Below are positions 22,820 to 41,569 of a DNA stretch of 64,000 nt, one piece after another. The stretch is from NCBI GenBank assembly GCA_013239625.1, contig MU053652.1:7835027-7899026 (forward strand). The letters are read 5' to 3'. The notes beneath the pieces are model-generated. The model was not told where the DNA came from. It searched no databases and saw only the letters and a program-made list of their open reading frames with translations. The position numbers were made by a program, and so were the translations under genes. Within the stretch, counting starts at the first letter, position 1. Each line of letters starts with the position of its first letter. Source of the stretch: Lama guanicoe (lineage: Eukaryota).

Positions 22820-23995
22820 ATATAAACAATAAACAAGGTGAGTAAATACACTACGTTTGAAGGTGATAATAGTAAAGAAAAAAATAAGCAGGGATTTGTT
22901 TTAAATGGGAAAGCCTTAGGAATCTGAAAAGAAGTAGTCTGAAAAGAAGAAAGAACTAAGCCTGGAAGATGTCTGGGGCAACACGGGCAAGGTAGCAAGT
23001 GCAAAGGCCCTGAGGCAGGAACATGCCTGCATGCGGTATTTAAGGAATTTCAAAAAGGCCAGTGACTAAGCAGAAGGGACAGAGAGGTCTTCCTCTTTCT
23101 CTTCCGGTCCCACACGATTCGGGATCTCCCGGCTCCGGTACAGGCATGGCCAAGTCGAAGAACCACACCACACACAACCAGTCCCGAAAATGGCACAGAA
23201 ACGGCATCAAAAAACCCCGATCACAACGATACGAATCTCTTAAGAGGGTAGACCCCAAGTTCCTGAGGAACATGCGCTTTGCCAAGAAGCACAACAAGAA
23301 GGGCCTGAAGAAGATGCAGGCCAACAATGCCAAGGCCATGAGTGCATGTGCTGAGGCTATCAAGGCTCTCGTAAAGCCCAAGGAGGTCAAGCCCAAGATT
23401 CCAAAGGGCAGCAGCTGCAAGCTCAGTCGACTTGCCTACATTGCTCACCCCAAGCTCGGGAAACGTGCTCGTGCCCGCATTGCCAAGGGTCTCAGACTCT
23501 GTCGGCCAAAGGCCAAGGACAAGGCTCAGACCAAGGCTGCAGCTACAGCTCCGGCTCCGGCTCCAGCTCCGGCTCCGGCTCCAGCTCCAGCTCAGTCTCC
23601 CAAAGGCACCTAGGCCCCCACAAAGGCTCCAGAGTAGAGGCTTTCATCTATTGATGTCAGGATGTAAGGACTTGTGTGACCCCTGGGCAGCTGTCTGCAT
23701 GGGGCTCATGTCTACCTGTGCTGTTTGTACAAATAAACCTGAGGCAGGAAAAAAAAAACAGAGAGGTAAGAGAGAGGGTCTTGTAAGGTCTTGTTAGGAC
23801 TCTGGTTTTCATCTAAGTGAGATGGGAAGGAATTAGAGTTTGGAGAGAAGGATGACATGGTCTGACTTGTGTTTAACTGGATTCCTCTGGCTGCTGTGTT
23901 GAAATATGCACAAGAAGGAAAGAGGGCAAGAAAGAAGAAGCGGGAAGCCTGTAAGGAAGCACTTGTAATTCAGGACAAAGATGAGAGCAGCACGA
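22820..23995. mobile_element. Ancient L2 fragment interrupted by the RPL29 retrocopy
   Basis: gcaagtgcaaaggccctgaggcaggaac...aggccagtg before the insert; gacatggtctgacttgtgttt...ctctggctgctgtgttg after it. Confidence 0.65.
23089..23757 (+). pseudogene. RPL29: Full-length processed retrocopy of 60S ribosomal protein L29 (ORF 23146-23613, 155 aa)
   Basis: Intronless [24 protein letters not shown]...; 5'TOP-like CTTCCTCTTTCTCTTCC at the insert start; AATAAA 23732-23737; A-run 23749-23758; TSD ACAGAGAGGT at 23079-23088 and 23758-23767. TAG at 23611 lies 8 codons before the likely original TAG (23635-23637). Confidence 0.95.
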
Positions 23996-32050: not shown

Positions 32051-34207
32051 TTATAACCGAAGTCAGACTCTCTTAAAAGCACATTGGTGTAAGTGACCAT
32101 TGCTTTCTGAAAATACCCAATTTAAATTCACTGACTTGAGAAGAAAGAAAGAAAACTTTGATTGAGACTTCAGCTGGAAAATAGAGAGGTAAAAATGATG
32201 GTACATTTAAAAGATTTCCTAGGGTGCTACCCTTGATGATAATGTAATAATTAACTGTTAGGGTGTTAGCTATCATCCTGAGTAGATACTTTAATTTACT
32301 AGAACCAATGGTTCAAGATGATGAACTGAGAACATGCATTTACTGTGTCATCTGCAGTACATGTCCTTAGAAAAAGTACAATGTAAAGCTGAAAACAAGA
32401 AGAGTGACATGACTCAAAGACCAAAACCAGATAGATTTGAATTAGAAAATTTTAAATAGTAGAAATTTACTTTGAAGGTATGAACCATCCCTTCCATTGG
32501 AGAGAGAAACCTTAAGCTCAGAGACAACAGATCCAAAACTCACAAGAGCATGGAGGACCATTACCATAGCAATCAATAACAATATTGCTACTCCACTGTG
32601 ACAGAACCAGTCAGACCATTCACCTTCCCAGAGTATGCAGAATGGAGGGTAAGAGAAACATTTGACCCCAGGTCATTTACAGAAAAACCTTCCCAGGTAG
32701 CGTTCAGAGTTTGGCTGTGGGACCAAATACAAAAGCAGAGCTAAACTGGATACAGCTGGGACTCCCCAGCAGGCAGAGAGGGGATGAAAAAGGAAAGGCT
32801 GCTGAGCCCTAGAGGGACTTGCACTTCTCTTCAATGATAATCTTCTCCTTACTTGGATGTTTGTCAGGGTTCCCACCAACCTGCCTGTTTTCACATGCTC
32901 CAGATGGAATCTTGCCAACATGCCTCAGCCCCCTTCACAGTCTACAACCCGTTCTCCCATTCAACCTAAGAGTCCTGTTGACTAAATATACCCAAACAAA
33001 TGCAGGAGGTTGGTGGGAGTTGGGGGGATCCCTATGACAGTTCTCAATCACTCTGGTCCTTCAGAAATACCAATGGATGGCCAAAGATCACATTACACAC
33101 ACAAGAAAGGAACTCTTTGGAATTAAAAATACGAGTGTCAGGGTATGGTGAAGACTAAACCAGTATTCTAGAAAAAAAAAACTGGACAAATCTATAATAC
33201 AAAGCAAAAAAGACAGAGGCTTAGAACACAGACAAGAAATGCAACACCGAGTATAGCTCTAGAAGAACTACGGTCCATCTAACAGTAGTTTCTTAAATCA
33301 ACAGGGAGAGTGAAAGAAAGGGAACCATTTGAAAAATAGTGAAAGGAAATTATCCTCAGCTGAAGACGAGAGTCTAAATTAGAAGAGCAAGCTAGACAGC
33401 TTTGTAAAGAATATCTCCAATAAACAAATAAACACAATGATGTGAATTTACCGAAGCCCAGAAACTATGGTTATGACATACTGCTTCTGAGATGAAGACA
33501 TATATCCCCTCTGATTTAAAAATGCGTGGTGAGGAACAGTTACAAGACTGGGAAAAACCAAGTATCTAATCAAATGTTTGTGTCCACATAAAGGGTACTG
33601 TGATATTTTTTGACAATTAATGGGAGGTAAGAAACAATGCTGCCCAAACAACAGACAAAATTCAGATAATTCAGGAACGAGATGGTCATTTTTACCGTTT
33701 CTAACAGATACTACCAATCATTTTAGAAAGTATGTTTCCTTTACTGAAGTGGTTTGTAGAATTTATAAGCTACTTTGCTTACATTTGTATCTTTTATTAA
33801 TGTCTCTAGAAAATTATCATAAGCATGGGAATGGAGTTTAAATTTTGATCTTTTATGTAAGAAAAATAGAGATGTATATGTTTGTCCTTGGATTAGACGT
33901 AATTGATGACTTCTTACTTTTGTGAGACAGTTGACTGAGCACAATGGTCTGGAAACCCAAACTTAAGCAAGTCAAAATAAATAACAAAAATTTAATGTTT
34001 TCCATAATCTGTTTTTAACTCAAATAGATTTTTTTTAACAAACAAAAAAAATGGAAGAATCTGTTAGTAAGAATCTATTCTTTTGGTTGCTATTAACTTT
34101 AAGTGAAATAAAATTTAACATTTTTTATTTGGAAAAAGTTAAGTGATTATTTGTGGGTAATAGGATTGGGGAGTTTCCTAGTTTCTTCTGTGTATTTTCA
34201 ATGTGTT

Positions 34208-34208
34208 T

Positions 34209-34239
<31 letters not shown>

Positions 34240-34243
34240 TTTT
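34208..34243. repeat. (TC)n plus poly-T tract
   Basis: Read directly from the sequence. Confidence 0.9.
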
Positions 34244-35529
34244 CCATCTACCTTAATCCTTGACTATTTTGGAGATACTGTGGATTTAAATAGTGGAGCG
34301 CAGTGATGTGTATTCTGTCCTTTCTAGATTTCCTGATTGGTGGGTAAAATTAGCTATATCTCTCATTCTCTCCATATCTTAATCTTCAAAATGGTGACAA
34401 TATTTATTAATATTTGCCTTACTGGAATTCATCGCATATCAAAACTCATCTAATAATCATTAAAAAAACTTATCACTGTAAAGATAGAAGGAGCTATTCT
34501 TTTCCAATAGTCATGGCTTATTTTACAACCTTAACAGTTGTAAAAACAGTTCTTGCTTGGGCACAAGAATCTAATTACTGTAATCACAGCCTTGGTGCAG
34601 CAAGATACCAAAAAAATAGGGGATCTTAGCAAACAGCCCCCAGTTTAGCTCACTAGATTTCACTGCTTCTTTAACTTTTACTTCTCTTGAAAATGAATAA
34701 ATGAATAGACAAAGAAATGAACTGAAGTCTGAATCTGAGTGTGATCTACTTACCAGCGTTCTATATGCCTGGATAAAGTGCATATGAAAGTGCAATATTT
34801 GGACAGTATCAGTCAGGAAAATAGCTTCCCTGACCTAAGAAGGGAAACGGCATTTGAGATCCTAGAATCTCTTTTGAGTCTTTATGAAAGAAAATGATCT
34901 GGATTATAACCAGGTCAGATCAAGGGGCCCTACGAAATTTTCAAATGACTTGCCATGCATTAAGAGCTAAAAGGAAATCAATTGCTTAGATACGGTATAC
35001 TGTAATAAGCCAGCAAATGTCACATCAAAGAAGTTCCTATATAAATGCCATCTTATGGGAGTCTAAACGGACTTAACCTTCTGATATTGACAATGGCCAA
35101 GGGAATTTCCAAGAGCCCGAGTGACACTTTGGATAAAAATCGATAATATACAGCATTCAGTATAAATTTCCTCTCACCCCATGACTCTGTATTCTGGGGT
35201 CACTTTTATCATTTAGGAACTTCCAATCCCTGGAGTGGTAACAGCTGTAACACAATGGTTGCCTTCTTTAGCTCCAGTGTTATTTTGTGACCCATGTCCC
35301 ACATGACTCTTATAAATTTCCCAATTTTCTATTAACAGATGGAGTCTCAAGACCGCTGTAGCAACGCCTAATCATAATAGATGCTCTTGTTATCTAATTT
35401 GTGTGTATTTATTTTTAAAAATAGTAAAATATAGATAAGTCTTATTTGACCCACTTTCCTCTGGAAATTTCTCTTAAATTATTTTTTTTAAAGTTACCTT
35501 TAATCCGACTCTTAGTTCAAATAGAGCTA

Positions 35530-36040
35530 ATTAATGACCTGGCTCCCCACTTCCCTCACTCATCCTCCTGCGTCAGCCACACTGGGCTTCTTGAGGTCCT
35601 GAAATCCTTCAAACCTGCTCTCAGTTACAGGCTTTTGCATTTGCTCTTCCCTAATCCAAGAATGCTCTTCTCAGACGTAATTGTGACCTGCATCTCATTA
35701 GGGAGCCATATCTGACGACCCTCGGTACAATTTCCAGGGAGGAATGCTCTTCTCAGACGTAATTGTGACCTGCTCCTCCTGCCTTCAGAGCATCTCATTA
35801 GGGAGCCATATCTGACGACCCTCGGTACAATTTCCAGGGCTCTCTCATCCCTTCAGTCTGCTTTATTATTCTCCACAGCACTTAGCATCATTTGATATAT
35901 ATGTGTTTGTCTGCTTTTAATTGTTTGTTTTCCCACAAGAATTTAAGTTCTCCAAGGACAGAGACTGCTACGTTCACATCCTTACCCTTAGTGCCTAGCA
36001 TGAGGTAAGCACCCAATACATAATTGCTCTATCAACGAAT
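35530..36040 (+). mobile_element. L2 3' fragment downstream of HYAL6
   Basis: cagccacactgg...ttttgcatttgctcttccc...agtgcctagca...taagcacccaataca...aacgaatg. Confidence 0.65.
35660..35839. repeat. Tandem duplication, 80 bp and 98 bp copies
   Basis: 35660-35739 matches 35742-35839 except that copy 1 lacks the 18 bp at 35773-35790. Confidence 0.95.
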
Positions 36041-36133
36041 GGAGCCAAGTACCCTTTTTTTTTAAACTTTAATGTCAACCAATATTATAGCAGTAGATTG
36101 AAGTATAAGAGGAAAAACAACATTTTCTGCTCT

Positions 36134-36283
36134 TCAGTATTTCAAGGAAAAATTGACATTGTAGTAGGGGGTAAAATAATTCAACAGAGTCACAGATAAA
36201 GTCATACTGAGAAAAACTGATAAATTAAAGTTAGCCACAGGCGCCCTATTCTTCCCGCTCAAAAACTGTGGAGAGTGTTCCCG
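36134..36283 (-). pseudogene. HYAL6: Ancestral HYAL6 C-terminal coding segment beyond the in-frame TGA (49 codons plus stop)
   Basis: Frame stays open: REHSPQFLSGKNRAPVANFNLSVFLSMTLSVTLLNYFTPYYNVNFSLKY, then TGA at 36136-36134. Contains a hydrophobic stretch analogous to the HYAL4 tail. Confidence 0.8.
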
Positions 36284-36580
36284 TCAAGACTCTCCATGCC
36301 AGCTCTCATAGCAGTGACACACAAACCCACCCTTCATGTCCTTTATTGTCCTCAGTTTATTGCCTGGAGACACGGTGAATCGCAAGCTCTTATTTAGGAC
36401 GTATTTCTTACTGCTACTTTCAGGCATGTGCAGATAGGAGGCAGATTCGGGTCTTTTTCGAACGCATCTCCCATTGTTGTTACAGAGGCTTCGACTGCAG
36501 AGTTTGGCTGCCATGGTCACGTTAACAGCATAATGGCCCAATGGCCCTTGGATAAACTTCTTCACCGACAAGCAGGTCTC
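36284..36580 (-). CDS. HYAL6: HYAL6 last coding exon up to the premature TGA (spliced product 435 aa)
   Basis: Acceptor tttttcctacag|GAG. ETCLSVKKF...CSRSLCNNNGRC...CHCYESWHGES, then TGA at 36286-36284. Confidence 0.9.
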   Translation of the reverse strand, partial: ETCLSVKKFIQGPLGHYAVNVTMAAKLCSRSLCNNNGRCVRKRPESASYLHMPESSSKKYVLNKSLRFTVSPGNKLRTIKDMKGGFVCHCYESWHGES

Positions 36581-37345
36581 CTGTAGGAAAAACAGAGATC
36601 TATTTAGATCACTCTCATAATGTGATTCCACTATCCTGACGTTTTGTTTTTGGTAAGGCTGAGGAGAAAGAGCATTTCAGTGGATTAATCATTCGAATGA
36701 GAGACTAAGCCCTTATAAAGGCATATACGTGATGAGTTCTTAGAGACGCTCCTTAAAGAGGTATTTATAGTAACACTTCAGAAAGAAAACCATTAATATG
36801 GGATGTGTGCCTTACTATCAAGAGTAGATTGTTAATAAAAGTTTAGATACATATTTTTTCCCTCCAAGGAGCATTTCTGTTATTGATAATCAGAAAATGA
36901 ATCATTTTCGGGGAATCCATCCTCCTTCGTGTGAATGAAAGGCTATTTATTTTTTAAATTTAGTCCTTTTTTTCTTTGTCACATATATTATATCATTTAA
37001 TCTACCAAAATTCTTGCAGAGTAGATTTTATTTCAGTACTGTTCTTTGAGATGGAGAAACAGAGACTCAGGGAGGTTAATTAACTTGCTCAAGATTACAC
37101 CCCTAGAATGTAAAAATGTGAATTCTCAAGGTTGTCTGATTGGAAAACCTGCGCTCTTTTCTACACTGCTACCAACCACAGTGGCTATTACAGAGCAGGT
37201 GCTCGAACGATGTTAGTCCCTGTAGTCTCTGAGCTTTGTTAAAGTCAAGTGAACAGAAAATCAACAACCATTTCTCTCCGGCATGAAAAGTTAAAACAAA
37301 ACCCAGTATTTAGAATATGCTTGAGATGGAGAAATCATGGCTTAC

Positions 37346-37435
37346 CTTTGAATCAGAGTATTCATAGCCTCCCCACAGTATTACTCCTGCTGCCCCCAGC
37401 GCGACGCTTTCACCAATTGTATGTACTAAGTCCTC
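37346..37435 (-). CDS. HYAL6: HYAL6 coding exon 2 (90 nt, EDLVHTIGESVALGAAGVILWGGYEYSDSK)
   Basis: Manual translation. Acceptor ctcttttctag| and donor AAG|GTAAGC. Same size and phase as HYAL4 exon 2. Confidence 0.93.
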
Positions 37436-40400
37436 CTAGAAAAGAGAGGGAACACAAGTAGTTTCTGCCAAACCATATTCAGTCATTGACAATTCAGTAA
37501 TAATCTCAGCCCATCAGCTGTGGTAAAGAACACGTTGAGATCAATATGTTTGTTTCTAAAACAAAGGACTATAGAGCAGAACTGGAAAAGGTTATTCTGC
37601 CTGAGATACTTACATGATAAATATTTATGATGTTCCAGGCAATATCCTAGACACAGAGAATAAGAAAATGAAACAGATTCCAGTTCTTGTCCTTGGTGGG
37701 CTGCTTTAGTGTGATGATTGAGACAGACGTGTATAATTACAGTGCAATAAGTTAAATTCTACATTAGCACCTACAAGACATACATAAGATTAGAGGAAGT
37801 GCTTAGTGCTGCATAGAAGAGTCCGGGAAGGCTTCCTTCAAGAAGAGGAATTTCAGATGGGTCTTTGAAAATGAGTATAAATTGATAAAACAGACTAATG
37901 AGAACAGAGTTTGGTATCCAGTGGGAAGAGAAATGGCAGAGGCTCATGTGTAGGAAAAAGCATGGTCCATCCAAGAAGTGCCAGTAACTCTTATGGTAAA
38001 AAGCACAGAGGATTGGGGGAGAAATAAAAGCATCTCAATCCTTGTGTGTATGTGGGATCCAAAAATAAGAGTCTGCTATGCTATTTTATTTTATTATGCT
38101 ATTTTAAAGTATTAGGACTTAAGTACAAAAAAAGTTTTAGTACTGGAAAGCCACACATTTGTAACTTTGATAGGAATTTTTGGCTGTCCCAGAAAAAAAC
38201 ATATTGAAGGGGGAAGTCAAGATGGCAGGCAGAGACCCCACTTAGGAGATGACAGAAACTGTTCAGCGAGAAATGATGAGGGCCTCAACAAAGGCAAGGT
38301 GAGTTCTTACAAAGCAGAGGGGATGGATTGTAGAGTCATTTGGAAATTAAGATGGATAAGTGTTAGTTATCCATCTTAATCCAAGGGAAGGGAGGCATCC
38401 AACTGACTCTCAAGTTGGGAAAGTAAGTAGATTATAGTTCATCAAGATGAGAAATGGAAGAGGTTATGTTCATGATTATAGACCAAGAGCAGAGAAGCAG
38501 GAAATAAGGAGAGATGAAAGACAGAGGGAAAGATTGATGGATAGTCTACATTCTTTCCTTCCCTGCAAGATGTGGAGAATCAGGGATCCAGTGCAAAGGC
38601 AACGTGTTCAAAGGCCCAGATAAGAAAATGGCCATGCTCAGCAAAGCTCCCCTGCATTAAATGACATCTCCAGTAACACCAGCACTTGTGTTTCACAACT
38701 TGTCTAAGTAATAAAATGGGAAAGAAAATCACTTTTCCAATATACTAATTAGTATTGCATACCTTAAATGAAAATCAAGTCTCTTGTTTAAATTGAGGCA
38801 TTTCTGAAAGAAAATATCCAGCAGAGTTGGTTTTAAGTGATTTCATAATTATAATACGAATAACATAATAAATGGTATGATAATGTAATGTTTAGACAGT
38901 AAGTGAGAAAGATCCATGGTATCTGTTGATCTGTGAAACATGCAGGGCAACAGGATAGTATTAAAACACTTCATTATAATATTACTCAGGTAATTCTATA
39001 GTTTTCATTTTCTGAAGTAGAGCTCAGAGGCAATACTTAGCCCATAATTTACTTTGAAAATCAAATAGTACAAAAAAAGGGACGGTTACAACATTAAAAT
39101 ATGGTTTATCTCATTCTTTCACTTTCTATCAAGACAAACTATCTGACTACATGGATTAGTGTTATTTTCTACTCTTATTATTACTAATAGCATATTGCAT
39201 CTGACACATGGTAGGCACTCAATGAAAAATTTTTAAATGAATAAATATAAATAAATAGTCTTTTTCCCAAAAGGATTTGAGAAAGTGACATGGTTTGAGA
39301 GATCTGTTTCGTGAGGAATAACTTATCAAGAAGACTTTGTAGGTATGACTGACTAACATCTTTAAATACCTGGAGAACTAACTTTCGAAAGAAGGATTTG
39401 ATTTATTCTATGTTGCACTGTAAATTAGAATTAGAACTAGTAGTGGTATGATGTTATCCAGAAGCAGAGTAGACTCAACACACTCAATAACTTTCTAGAA
39501 ATTAAGATTGTTCCCAAAAGGCAGTTTTCCTTCTGCAATAGGGAGACCCCCATCAAAAGATGCTAAAGCAGAGCTCAGGTAAGAAATGTTTGGATGAGTG
39601 GTGGATTAGATATCTCTGAGATCCTCCAACTTTTTGTCATAGTGCTATGATTCTTTTCCTCCTAAATTTCTTGAATGAACATTCCATTTTGAATAATACA
39701 GAGTAATCCTGCAATCATAGAAATGTCAGGTCTAATCAATCAGTGTTTGGGTCAATAGATTTTATTCTAAAATTTTTGAGGAAGAATTGATACTGAGCTT
39801 AAATGTCTTTATCTCAAACACATGTGATCTAAGAAGATGAACTGTATGTTATCCATCCAATGGCCTTTCTTCTGTGTTGGGTACTGTAATAACAGGATTG
39901 TGAGTTCACAGGTATGGAGGGAGATCAAAGGGCTTTCTCACCCAGCCACCCATTCAATGAGTGAATCCCTACAACAAGGTCCTGTCTAAATGACAATCTA
40001 GCTTAAGTTTGAACACTTCTAAGTGTCTATAAATTCATTAACTTCCAAACAAGCTCATTCCCACATCTTTGTGCTTCCCAACTTGTGTTAGGTCTAAGGG
40101 TAATAACCTACCTATTTATACAGATCACTTTTAATGCCTTGACACTCACCGCTAGATCACACTGTGGACTCTTAGAGATAAAATTAACAGAATCTATGTT
40201 ATTTTTCAATTAATCTAATCAACCAAAGCAAAAGTGCTATATACTGAAAATATCATTGGTTAATAATTTACCCAAGCTCTATTTTACACATTTTTGATTT
40301 AGTAATTTGCTGCTACTCTTTCATATTAAAAAGCTGATTCTGAAATTTCCCCCTGGTTAAAATTAATCTATCTGTTACATGATTTAACTTAAGCTTAACA

Positions 40401-40648: not shown

Positions 40649-41569
40649 CTGTGACAGAGCTTCAATACTATGCAAATAAAATGGTCTGGAAAAAATAAAA
40701 ACTGGCAAAACATAGTCATGTCTAGCCATGTCAGCAATTCTCATGGCTTCTCTAATTCGATAATGAACAAATTTCAAAGCATTTAAACTTGACTTCAATA
40801 TTTTATCCAAATATATTGAAGTATAAAGAGCTGTGCTTTTTCCCCATAGCCACTGGAGTTGGTCATTGCGGAAAATTTCATCACTCGGGCATTTACCTGT
40901 GTAGGTCTGTGGATTTATCCTATAATCATAATTGTAGCAGTCTGGATAGAGATAAAAGCCCCATAAACATTTTGGTCTCATTTCTAAAGCCAGTGTGAGG
41001 GTAGCATTCATAATACTCCTCCCAGCATTTTCAAATTCCTCTTGGGCAACTGTTCTTACTTTCATTGCTGACCAGTCAGGATGGTGGCTTCTAGTAAAGG
41101 CTAACGAGTAGTTTTTATATATTGTTCTGGCCCCCCAGTTTCTGTCCCATTGCGGCTTCCAGCTTTCCCAGTCAAGGACAACGAGACCTTCAGACCTCCA
41201 CCAAGGGACAGCCTTGGCAATGTCATCAGCGGTCTTCCGTAGGTGTTTGGAAAGGCTCATATTCTGTGGTATCCCTCCATTAAAGGGTTTCCCATCTCGA
41301 GAGAAATAAGGATAGTACCCTAATTCATTGGGGTAAAGAATGGCAATTGTTGATCCACTCTGAGTCTCCAAAGGGTTGGATATAATATTAAATAAGTGAA
41401 GGTTCAGATCCACACGGAAGAAGTGCTGACACTGCATTGTTGGGGCAGCCCAGAAAATGTTGAAAGGTTGTCTCTTGATCACCGGAGGCATTGCTGGCTT
41501 GAGGGCCGAATGAGTGAACACCGTGGAGAGCAGCAGCAGTCCGAACTGTGCCGCCCACGGGTTACTCAT
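40649..41569 (-). CDS. HYAL6: Hyaluronidase-6 / HYALP1 orthologue, coding exon 1 (307 codons)
   Basis: Signal-peptide-like N-terminus, PFNIFWAAPT, GGIPQN, VLDWESWKPQWDRNW (D133/E135), FYLYPDCYNYDY. Acceptor tcttatttttaag| at 41600; donor CAG|GTAAGA after 40649. Position upstream of HYAL4 on the same strand matches known synteny. Confidence 0.92.

Follow-up and report, generated by a model that had tools for sequence, protein, structure and literature searches.

An in-frame TGA at the sixth EGF-like cysteine codon of a camelid HYAL6 gene: a candidate young nonsense allele

The closest described counterpart of the gene analysed here is mouse Hyal6 (Hyalp1), an orthologue with the same Cys pattern, which PMC9141766 describes as testis- and sperm-specific and as located on the sperm surface. 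In the same text the mouse gene is intact, no hyaluronidase activity is attributed to it, and in Hyal6-knockout mice fertility and sperm are reported to be normal, with no change in the hyaluronidase activity of the sperm; sperm hyaluronidases in general are described there as GPI-anchored, and some species are stated to carry stops in HYAL6 (PMC9141766). According to PMC2864566, two frameshift deletions have made human HYAL6 (HYALP1/HYAL6P) a unitary pseudogene, and other primates may have a disabled copy too. The human and camelid cases have in common the gene itself, its position adjoining HYAL4, and a copy disabled in one lineage and intact in close relatives (the chimpanzee 483-aa HYAL6 model is intact). 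They differ in that the human loss is fixed and consists of the two frameshift deletions (PMC2864566), whereas the camelid copy has a single nonsense base, in its last exon, which three of three other DNA runs lack, and shows no further decay.

Readthrough of UGA is best compared with the type II sites of alphaviruses, which have UGA-C and CGG in common with the HYAL6 site. The initial annotation had named UGA-CGG as a readthrough motif of some alphaviruses, and this agrees with PMC3159437, in which UGA-CGG and UGA-CUA are the consensus contexts of alphaviruses and of several plant viruses. A stem-loop about 8 nt downstream raises readthrough there up to ten-fold, and one group conserves the pattern xxA-stop-CGx-xxx-xxG (Firth et al. 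2011, PMC3159437). Unlike these sites, HYAL6 has neither a conserved stop nor a 3′ structure nor the flanking motif positions. In yeast, UGA leaks at a background of 10^-4 to 10^-3 without any signal, according to a review (PMC13517186).

PH-20/SPAM1 (9jub) and HYAL1 (2pe4), for which structures exist, are paralogues and not orthologues of HYAL6; like HYAL6, they have a catalytic domain of glycoside hydrolase family 56 and, C-terminal to it, a Cys-rich region of EGF-like type. In the paper on the HYAL1 structure, the fifth EGF-like Cys is said to pair with the sixth. Reitinger et al. (2007) reportedly found no degradation of hyaluronan by mouse HYALP1, in contrast to SPAM1 and HYAL5. It was also observed that the PH-20 chain 9jub_A has 406 residues, that its alignment to the last HYAL6 exon reaches residue 404 at ...CSCYST, and that the chain apparently stops short of the sixth EGF-like Cys. 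Should its last residues be native, a member of the family folds without the sixth Cys, which bears on the folding of a 435-aa HYAL6.

The window (the whole stretch of 64,000 nucleotides that was analysed) carries HYAL6 and HYAL4 on the minus strand, with the HYAL6 exons (41569-36134) upstream of the HYAL4 exons (20604-11720); the features discussed are collected in Table 1. Joining of the three HYAL6 exons by their coordinates gave 435 codons, a TGA, 49 further codons and a second TGA, with GT/AG at all junctions, so that both protein lengths proposed in the initial annotation (435 and 485 aa) were reproduced; the positions that it gave on the minus strand for the TGA, the following CGG, the 49 open codons and the second TGA were likewise confirmed. 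Apart from the TGA, the joined frame has no lesion in its 485 codons.

Table 1. Features of the HYAL6 and HYAL4 genes in the window.
Feature	Position	Strand	Details
HYAL6 coding exon A	40649..41569	minus	ATG 41569-41567; 307 codons; donor GT 40648-40647
HYAL6 coding exon B	37346..37435	minus	30 codons (EDLVHTIGES...YSDSK); AG before, GT after
HYAL6 last coding exon through TGA	36284..36580	minus	98 codons; EGF-like Cys pattern
In-frame TGA, codon 436	36284..36286	minus	sixth EGF-like Cys position; third base (36284) the sole letter of the codon at variance with the other runs
CGG (Arg437), first codon past TGA	36281..36283	minus	alpaca Cys-Arg, Camelus Cys-Gln
49 open codons and second TGA (36136-36134)	36134..36283	minus	normal C-terminal tail; natural stop of 485-aa protein
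Hydrophobic stretch LSVFLSMTLSVTLLNYF, residues 457-473	36173..36223	minus	putative membrane-anchoring signal
Second variable tail site	36147	minus	X4 C (+), window G; TCC to TGC, Ser481 to Cys
HYAL4 large exon ORF	20604-19585	minus	
HYAL4 last exon	12118-11720	minus	ends ...FSCHCYQGYEGADCRGMK...

Family membership was assigned with the Pfam profile Glyco_hydro_56 (PF01630), which matched exon A with an E value of 2.2e-112 (profile positions 1-279 of 335) and exon B with 5.2e-08. The catalytic Asp-x-Glu pair of glycoside hydrolase family 56 is present in exon A, within the motif LDWESW. The last exon aligned to PH-20 (9jub_A, E 8.7e-13) and HYAL1 (2pe4_A, E 1.7e-09), and its fourth and fifth EGF-like Cys are residues 425 and 427 (the latter at 36313-36311). 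The top protein match of exon A was a 485-aa alpaca protein named 'hyaluronidase-4-like' (P0001, 99% identity), followed by models of 454 to 500 aa from many mammals, among them 'Hyal6 [Phodopus roborovskii]' at 75%; murid and cricetid models matched exon A at 73-75% identity. Identity to the HYAL4 paralogue in the window was 44%. Because the best matches are HYAL6 models, identity to HYAL4 is this low and the gene lies directly upstream of HYAL4, it is assigned by sequence comparison as the camelid orthologue of HYAL6/HYALP1, a testis and sperm hyaluronidase-like gene that is otherwise intact.

Some public models fuse the two genes; one of 808 aa from Camelus ferus (P0130) runs HYAL6 into HYAL4, and in the 'hyaluronidase-4' models of hedgehog and aardvark (P0029, P0030) a front part resembling HYAL6 (75-78% identity to exon A) is joined to an end of HYAL4 type. 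Between HYAL6 and HYAL4, at 23146-23610 on the plus strand, lies an intronless frame of 155 codons with a Ribosomal_L29e match (E 6.5e-25) and an Ala-Pro repeat end, which is most likely an RPL29 retrocopy.

The initial annotation had placed the TGA at the sixth EGF-like Cys by a gap-free alignment to HYAL4, and this was borne out by BLASTP, in which the TGA stands opposite a Cys of the HYAL4 in the window (GESXR against GADCR) without gaps nearby. Where the EGF-like region of family 56 has six Cys, the window has five, with TGA in place of the sixth and TGC at the same codon in sequencing runs X1, X2 and X4. The site was scored in a set of 134 homologous proteins, of which 23 had no F.C.CY motif (mostly exon A fragments) and one ended too early; in all of the remaining 110, from fish to mammals, a Cys lies nine residues past the fifth Cys. 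Proteins of exactly 485 aa with Cys at residue 436 were found in alpaca, Camelus bactrianus, C. dromedarius, C. ferus, two rhinos and four carnivores, and they align without gaps to the read-through translation of the window. To judge from these alignments, the ancestral state at codon 436 is Cys. The window and alpaca have ESWHGES-REHSPQF in common around the site, and the three Camelus proteins read EGWHGESCQEHSPQF, which marks the source of the window as an alpaca-like (lamine) camelid. Since alpaca has Cys-Arg at this point, the CGG context is a by-product of an ancestral Cys-Arg pair, the CGG being an inherited Arg codon older than the stop. That 49 codons stay open after the TGA is unsurprising, because the relatives end at the same 485 aa and these codons are simply the normal tail. 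The alignment of orthologues had been proposed as a means of dating the stop; alpaca, Camelus and all 110 homologues have Cys in it, and with TGC in the three DNA runs as well, the stop is private to the assembly.

The hydrophobic tail announced in the initial annotation is present as the stretch LSVFLSMTLSVTLLNYF, in which Kyte-Doolittle means over 11 residues reach 1.95. These 17 hydrophobic residues are followed by 12 polar ones at the C-terminus, and the hydrophobic stretch is kept across mammalian HYAL6 orthologues. In every protein comparison the tail has changed faster than the body. From Camelus, 6 of 49 tail residues and 11-12 of 435 body residues are different (Fisher p 0.004-0.006); against rhinos and carnivores the figures are 13-24 of 49 and 59-76 of 435. 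Four of the six differences from Camelus (residues 437, 476, 480 and 484) are common to alpaca and one is private to a camel sequence, and residue 445 is the sole tail difference between the window and alpaca. Because most of the differences from camel are thus common to alpaca and only residue 445 separates the window from it, the faster tail is read as a feature of the lamine lineage and not as decay after the TGA.

The last 12 or so HYAL6 codons (36134-36180, minus strand) are read in three frames among mammals (P0012-P0045, P0125, P0134). In frame 0 the window ends in TPYYNVNFSLKY, as do camelids, rhinos, carnivores and some rodents; its frame +1 (PPTTMSIFP) comes near the ends of primate, elephant, chinchilla and rat proteins, and its frame +2 (FYPLLQCQFF) near pig, peccary and guinea-pig models. 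Such a distribution implies repeated indels of one or two bases, located within the hydrophobic stretch or beyond it, and only weak constraint at the very C-terminus. The C-termini in three frames suggest that only the hydrophobic stretch is constrained, as would be expected of a cleaved anchoring signal.

For comparison with other sequenced animals, public sequencing runs were used, of which 20 of the 24 listed contain at least part of 36000-37500. Four were compared across 1501 bases, namely the DNA runs X1, X2 and X4, which carry three organism labels, and the RNA run X15; runs X7 and X9, with a fourth organism label, contain the stretch and lay outside the comparison. A single contig of each DNA run spans all 1501 bases and departs from the window at just 2 to 4 letters. 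At 36284 the window has T (+) and the contigs of all three DNA runs have G (+), which makes the codon TGC (Cys); contigs were compared throughout, from which a minor allele may drop out. Among these three labels the stop is therefore not fixed. Position 36284 is the sole site of the 1501 at which the window differs from all three DNA runs, every other variable site being common to the window and at least one run or private to another run. Private bases amount to one each in X2 (36789), X4 (36147) and the window (36284); X4 also has a deletion that is found otherwise only in X15. The window itself contains no N and no private indel in the 1501 bases, and past 36284 its tail has no private change relative to X1, X2 and X4.

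In the last exon, three residues set the alpaca protein P0001 apart from the window: 342 (L), 445 (R) and 454 (K). At the bases for these residues X1, X2 and X4 side with the window, so the alpaca reference represents a noticeably different haplotype of this exon. In the assembly from which the window was taken (2.05 Gb, 55,231 contigs) the stretch occurs once, as the window itself, and neither a second copy nor a haplotig was found there. Searches for further haplotypes gave 20 short proteins for the last exon with the TGA as X (best 74%, none camelid) and no match among metagenome contigs for a 31-letter pattern across the codon. The RNA run X15 covered no exon, its contigs being confined to the intron at 36855-37006 and to a repeat piece of 33 bases, and is uninformative on transcription. 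Its contigs in the intron between exon B and the last exon were of low depth. A piece of 33-42 bases at 37058-37099 recurs in other contigs of X1, X4 and X15 and is therefore a short dispersed repeat.

Signals for recoding were also sought. With Rfam, the region 33500-36700, which takes in about 2.8 kb past the TGA, gave four weak, unrelated hits and no SECIS element on either strand at E values up to 10. For the 150 nt from the stop the folding energy was -25.4 kcal/mol, and shuffled versions averaged -28.2 (z +0.80); of 200 shuffles, 156 folded as well as or better than the HYAL6 stretch, so that no stable stem-loop past the stop was detected in these 150 nt. Of the marks of programmed readthrough, UGA followed by CGG or CUA is present as TGA CGG at 36286-36281, and the conserved stop is absent, with Cys in 110 of 110 homologues and TGC in three of three runs.

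The reading to which we incline, with somewhat better than even confidence, is that the TGA is a real, young and unfixed nonsense allele of camelid HYAL6. That the base is a natural private variant is plausible, since such variants run at about one per haplotype over the 1501 bases, in which the window has neither an N nor a private indel, and the absence of any private change in the tail apart from 36284, relative to the three runs, speaks for a young age. A tolerated loss of HYAL6 is plausible by analogy with the mouse knockout and the human pseudogene. On the other side, T (+) at 36284 was found in none of the three other DNA runs, so the base has no independent confirmation, and change of an invariant Cys is what selection would remove and an error would not avoid, which counts against a real allele. 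An error of assembly or base calling, with TGC and an intact 485-aa HYAL6 in the animal and the stop only in the consensus, is accordingly a serious possibility, though we would place it short of an even chance. It would account for G (+) at 36284 in all three DNA runs (including X1 and X4, which are near-identical to the window and possible sources of its DNA), for the Cys of the alpaca and camel proteins, and for a TGA that is the sole lesion, at an invariant residue, in an otherwise perfect gene; the assembly, in 55,231 contigs, is fragmented. Yet the site lies outside any homopolymer (GTCTTGACGG), the window has no private indel and no other private base in its 1501 bases, and natural private variants, at about one per haplotype, are likely commoner than consensus errors in a decent assembly. 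The initial annotation had held that a Cys codon at this site would remove the observation; for the other animals this is what was found (TGC in three of three runs).

The remaining readings go beyond a single allele. A loss at the level of the species, in which the TGA would be fixed or common in the species of the window and HYAL6 a very young unitary pseudogene, is improbable: the three organism labels compared are within 2 to 4 letters of the window over 1501 bases and all have TGC, and neither a second lesion nor private decay past the stop was found, although the fourth label (X7, X9) lay outside the comparison and HYAL6 has been lost in human (PMC2864566) and carries stops in some species (PMC9141766). 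The first option of the initial annotation, a unitary pseudogene or null allele, is therefore divided, the null allele being best supported and the fixed pseudogene unsupported, given the absence of the stop from three of three DNA runs (three organism labels) and from the alpaca and camel proteins and the lack of any other lesion in 485 codons. A functional readthrough switch between a soluble 435-aa and an anchored 485-aa form, also put forward there, is very unlikely and has no support. It could draw on the viral UGA-CGG context, on the frame that stays open past the TGA and on the decoding of UGA, which is most often as Arg, Cys or Trp (PMC13517186); Cys had correctly been named among the inserted residues, a point that concerns background leak. 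Against it stand a stop that is not conserved and is TGC in close relatives, a CGG that is older than the stop and an open frame that is the normal tail, a fold of the 150 nt at z +0.80 where efficient readthrough at the viral sites depends on a stem-loop some 8 nt past the stop, and flanks of TCT and CAC where the viral motif has xxA before the stop and xxG as the third codon after it (PMC3159437). Selenocysteine at codon 436, which the initial annotation had not raised, is the least probable reading by far. A UGA aligned to the Cys of homologues is the classic signature of a selenoprotein, but with no SECIS match in the scanned 33500-36700 on either strand and TGC in close relatives it is excluded in practice.

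If the nonsense allele is real, it would have arisen by a single C-to-A change on the coding strand in the third base of codon 436, from TGC (Cys) to TGA. Last-exon stops escape nonsense-mediated decay, and the mRNA with this stop should do so too. Translation should then end after Ser435 and yield a product of 435 aa, which would miss the sixth EGF-like Cys (Cys436), leaving Cys427 unpaired, and would also miss the 49-residue tail with its hydrophobic anchoring stretch. A secreted, anchor-less 435-aa enzyme, as in the second option of the initial annotation, would be a direct consequence of a real allele; nothing shows that the truncated form is put to use. Because the sixth EGF-like Cys and the anchoring tail would be missing, the TGA allele is most likely a null or weak one, and since HYAL6 is dispensable in mouse and lost in human, it is by analogy probably harmless. 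Such readthrough as occurs would amount to the usual background leak at UGA-C. It is a long shot that the TGA allele segregates in lamine camelids and that its carriers, because the stop is UGA-CGG in the last exon, make mostly soluble 435-aa protein together with full-length anchored protein at the percent level, with Arg, Cys or Trp at residue 436; if true, nature would here have produced a leaky nonsense allele of recent origin that in part makes good its own defect.

A lone in-frame stop in one assembly, even in a suggestive context, should not be taken for a pseudogene, recoding or readthrough until other animals have been compared; for HYAL6, such a comparison removed the stop in three of three cases. 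The TGA, if real, would be one more loss-of-function allele, in one camelid animal, of a gene that is dispensable in mouse and dead in human, and would matter little.
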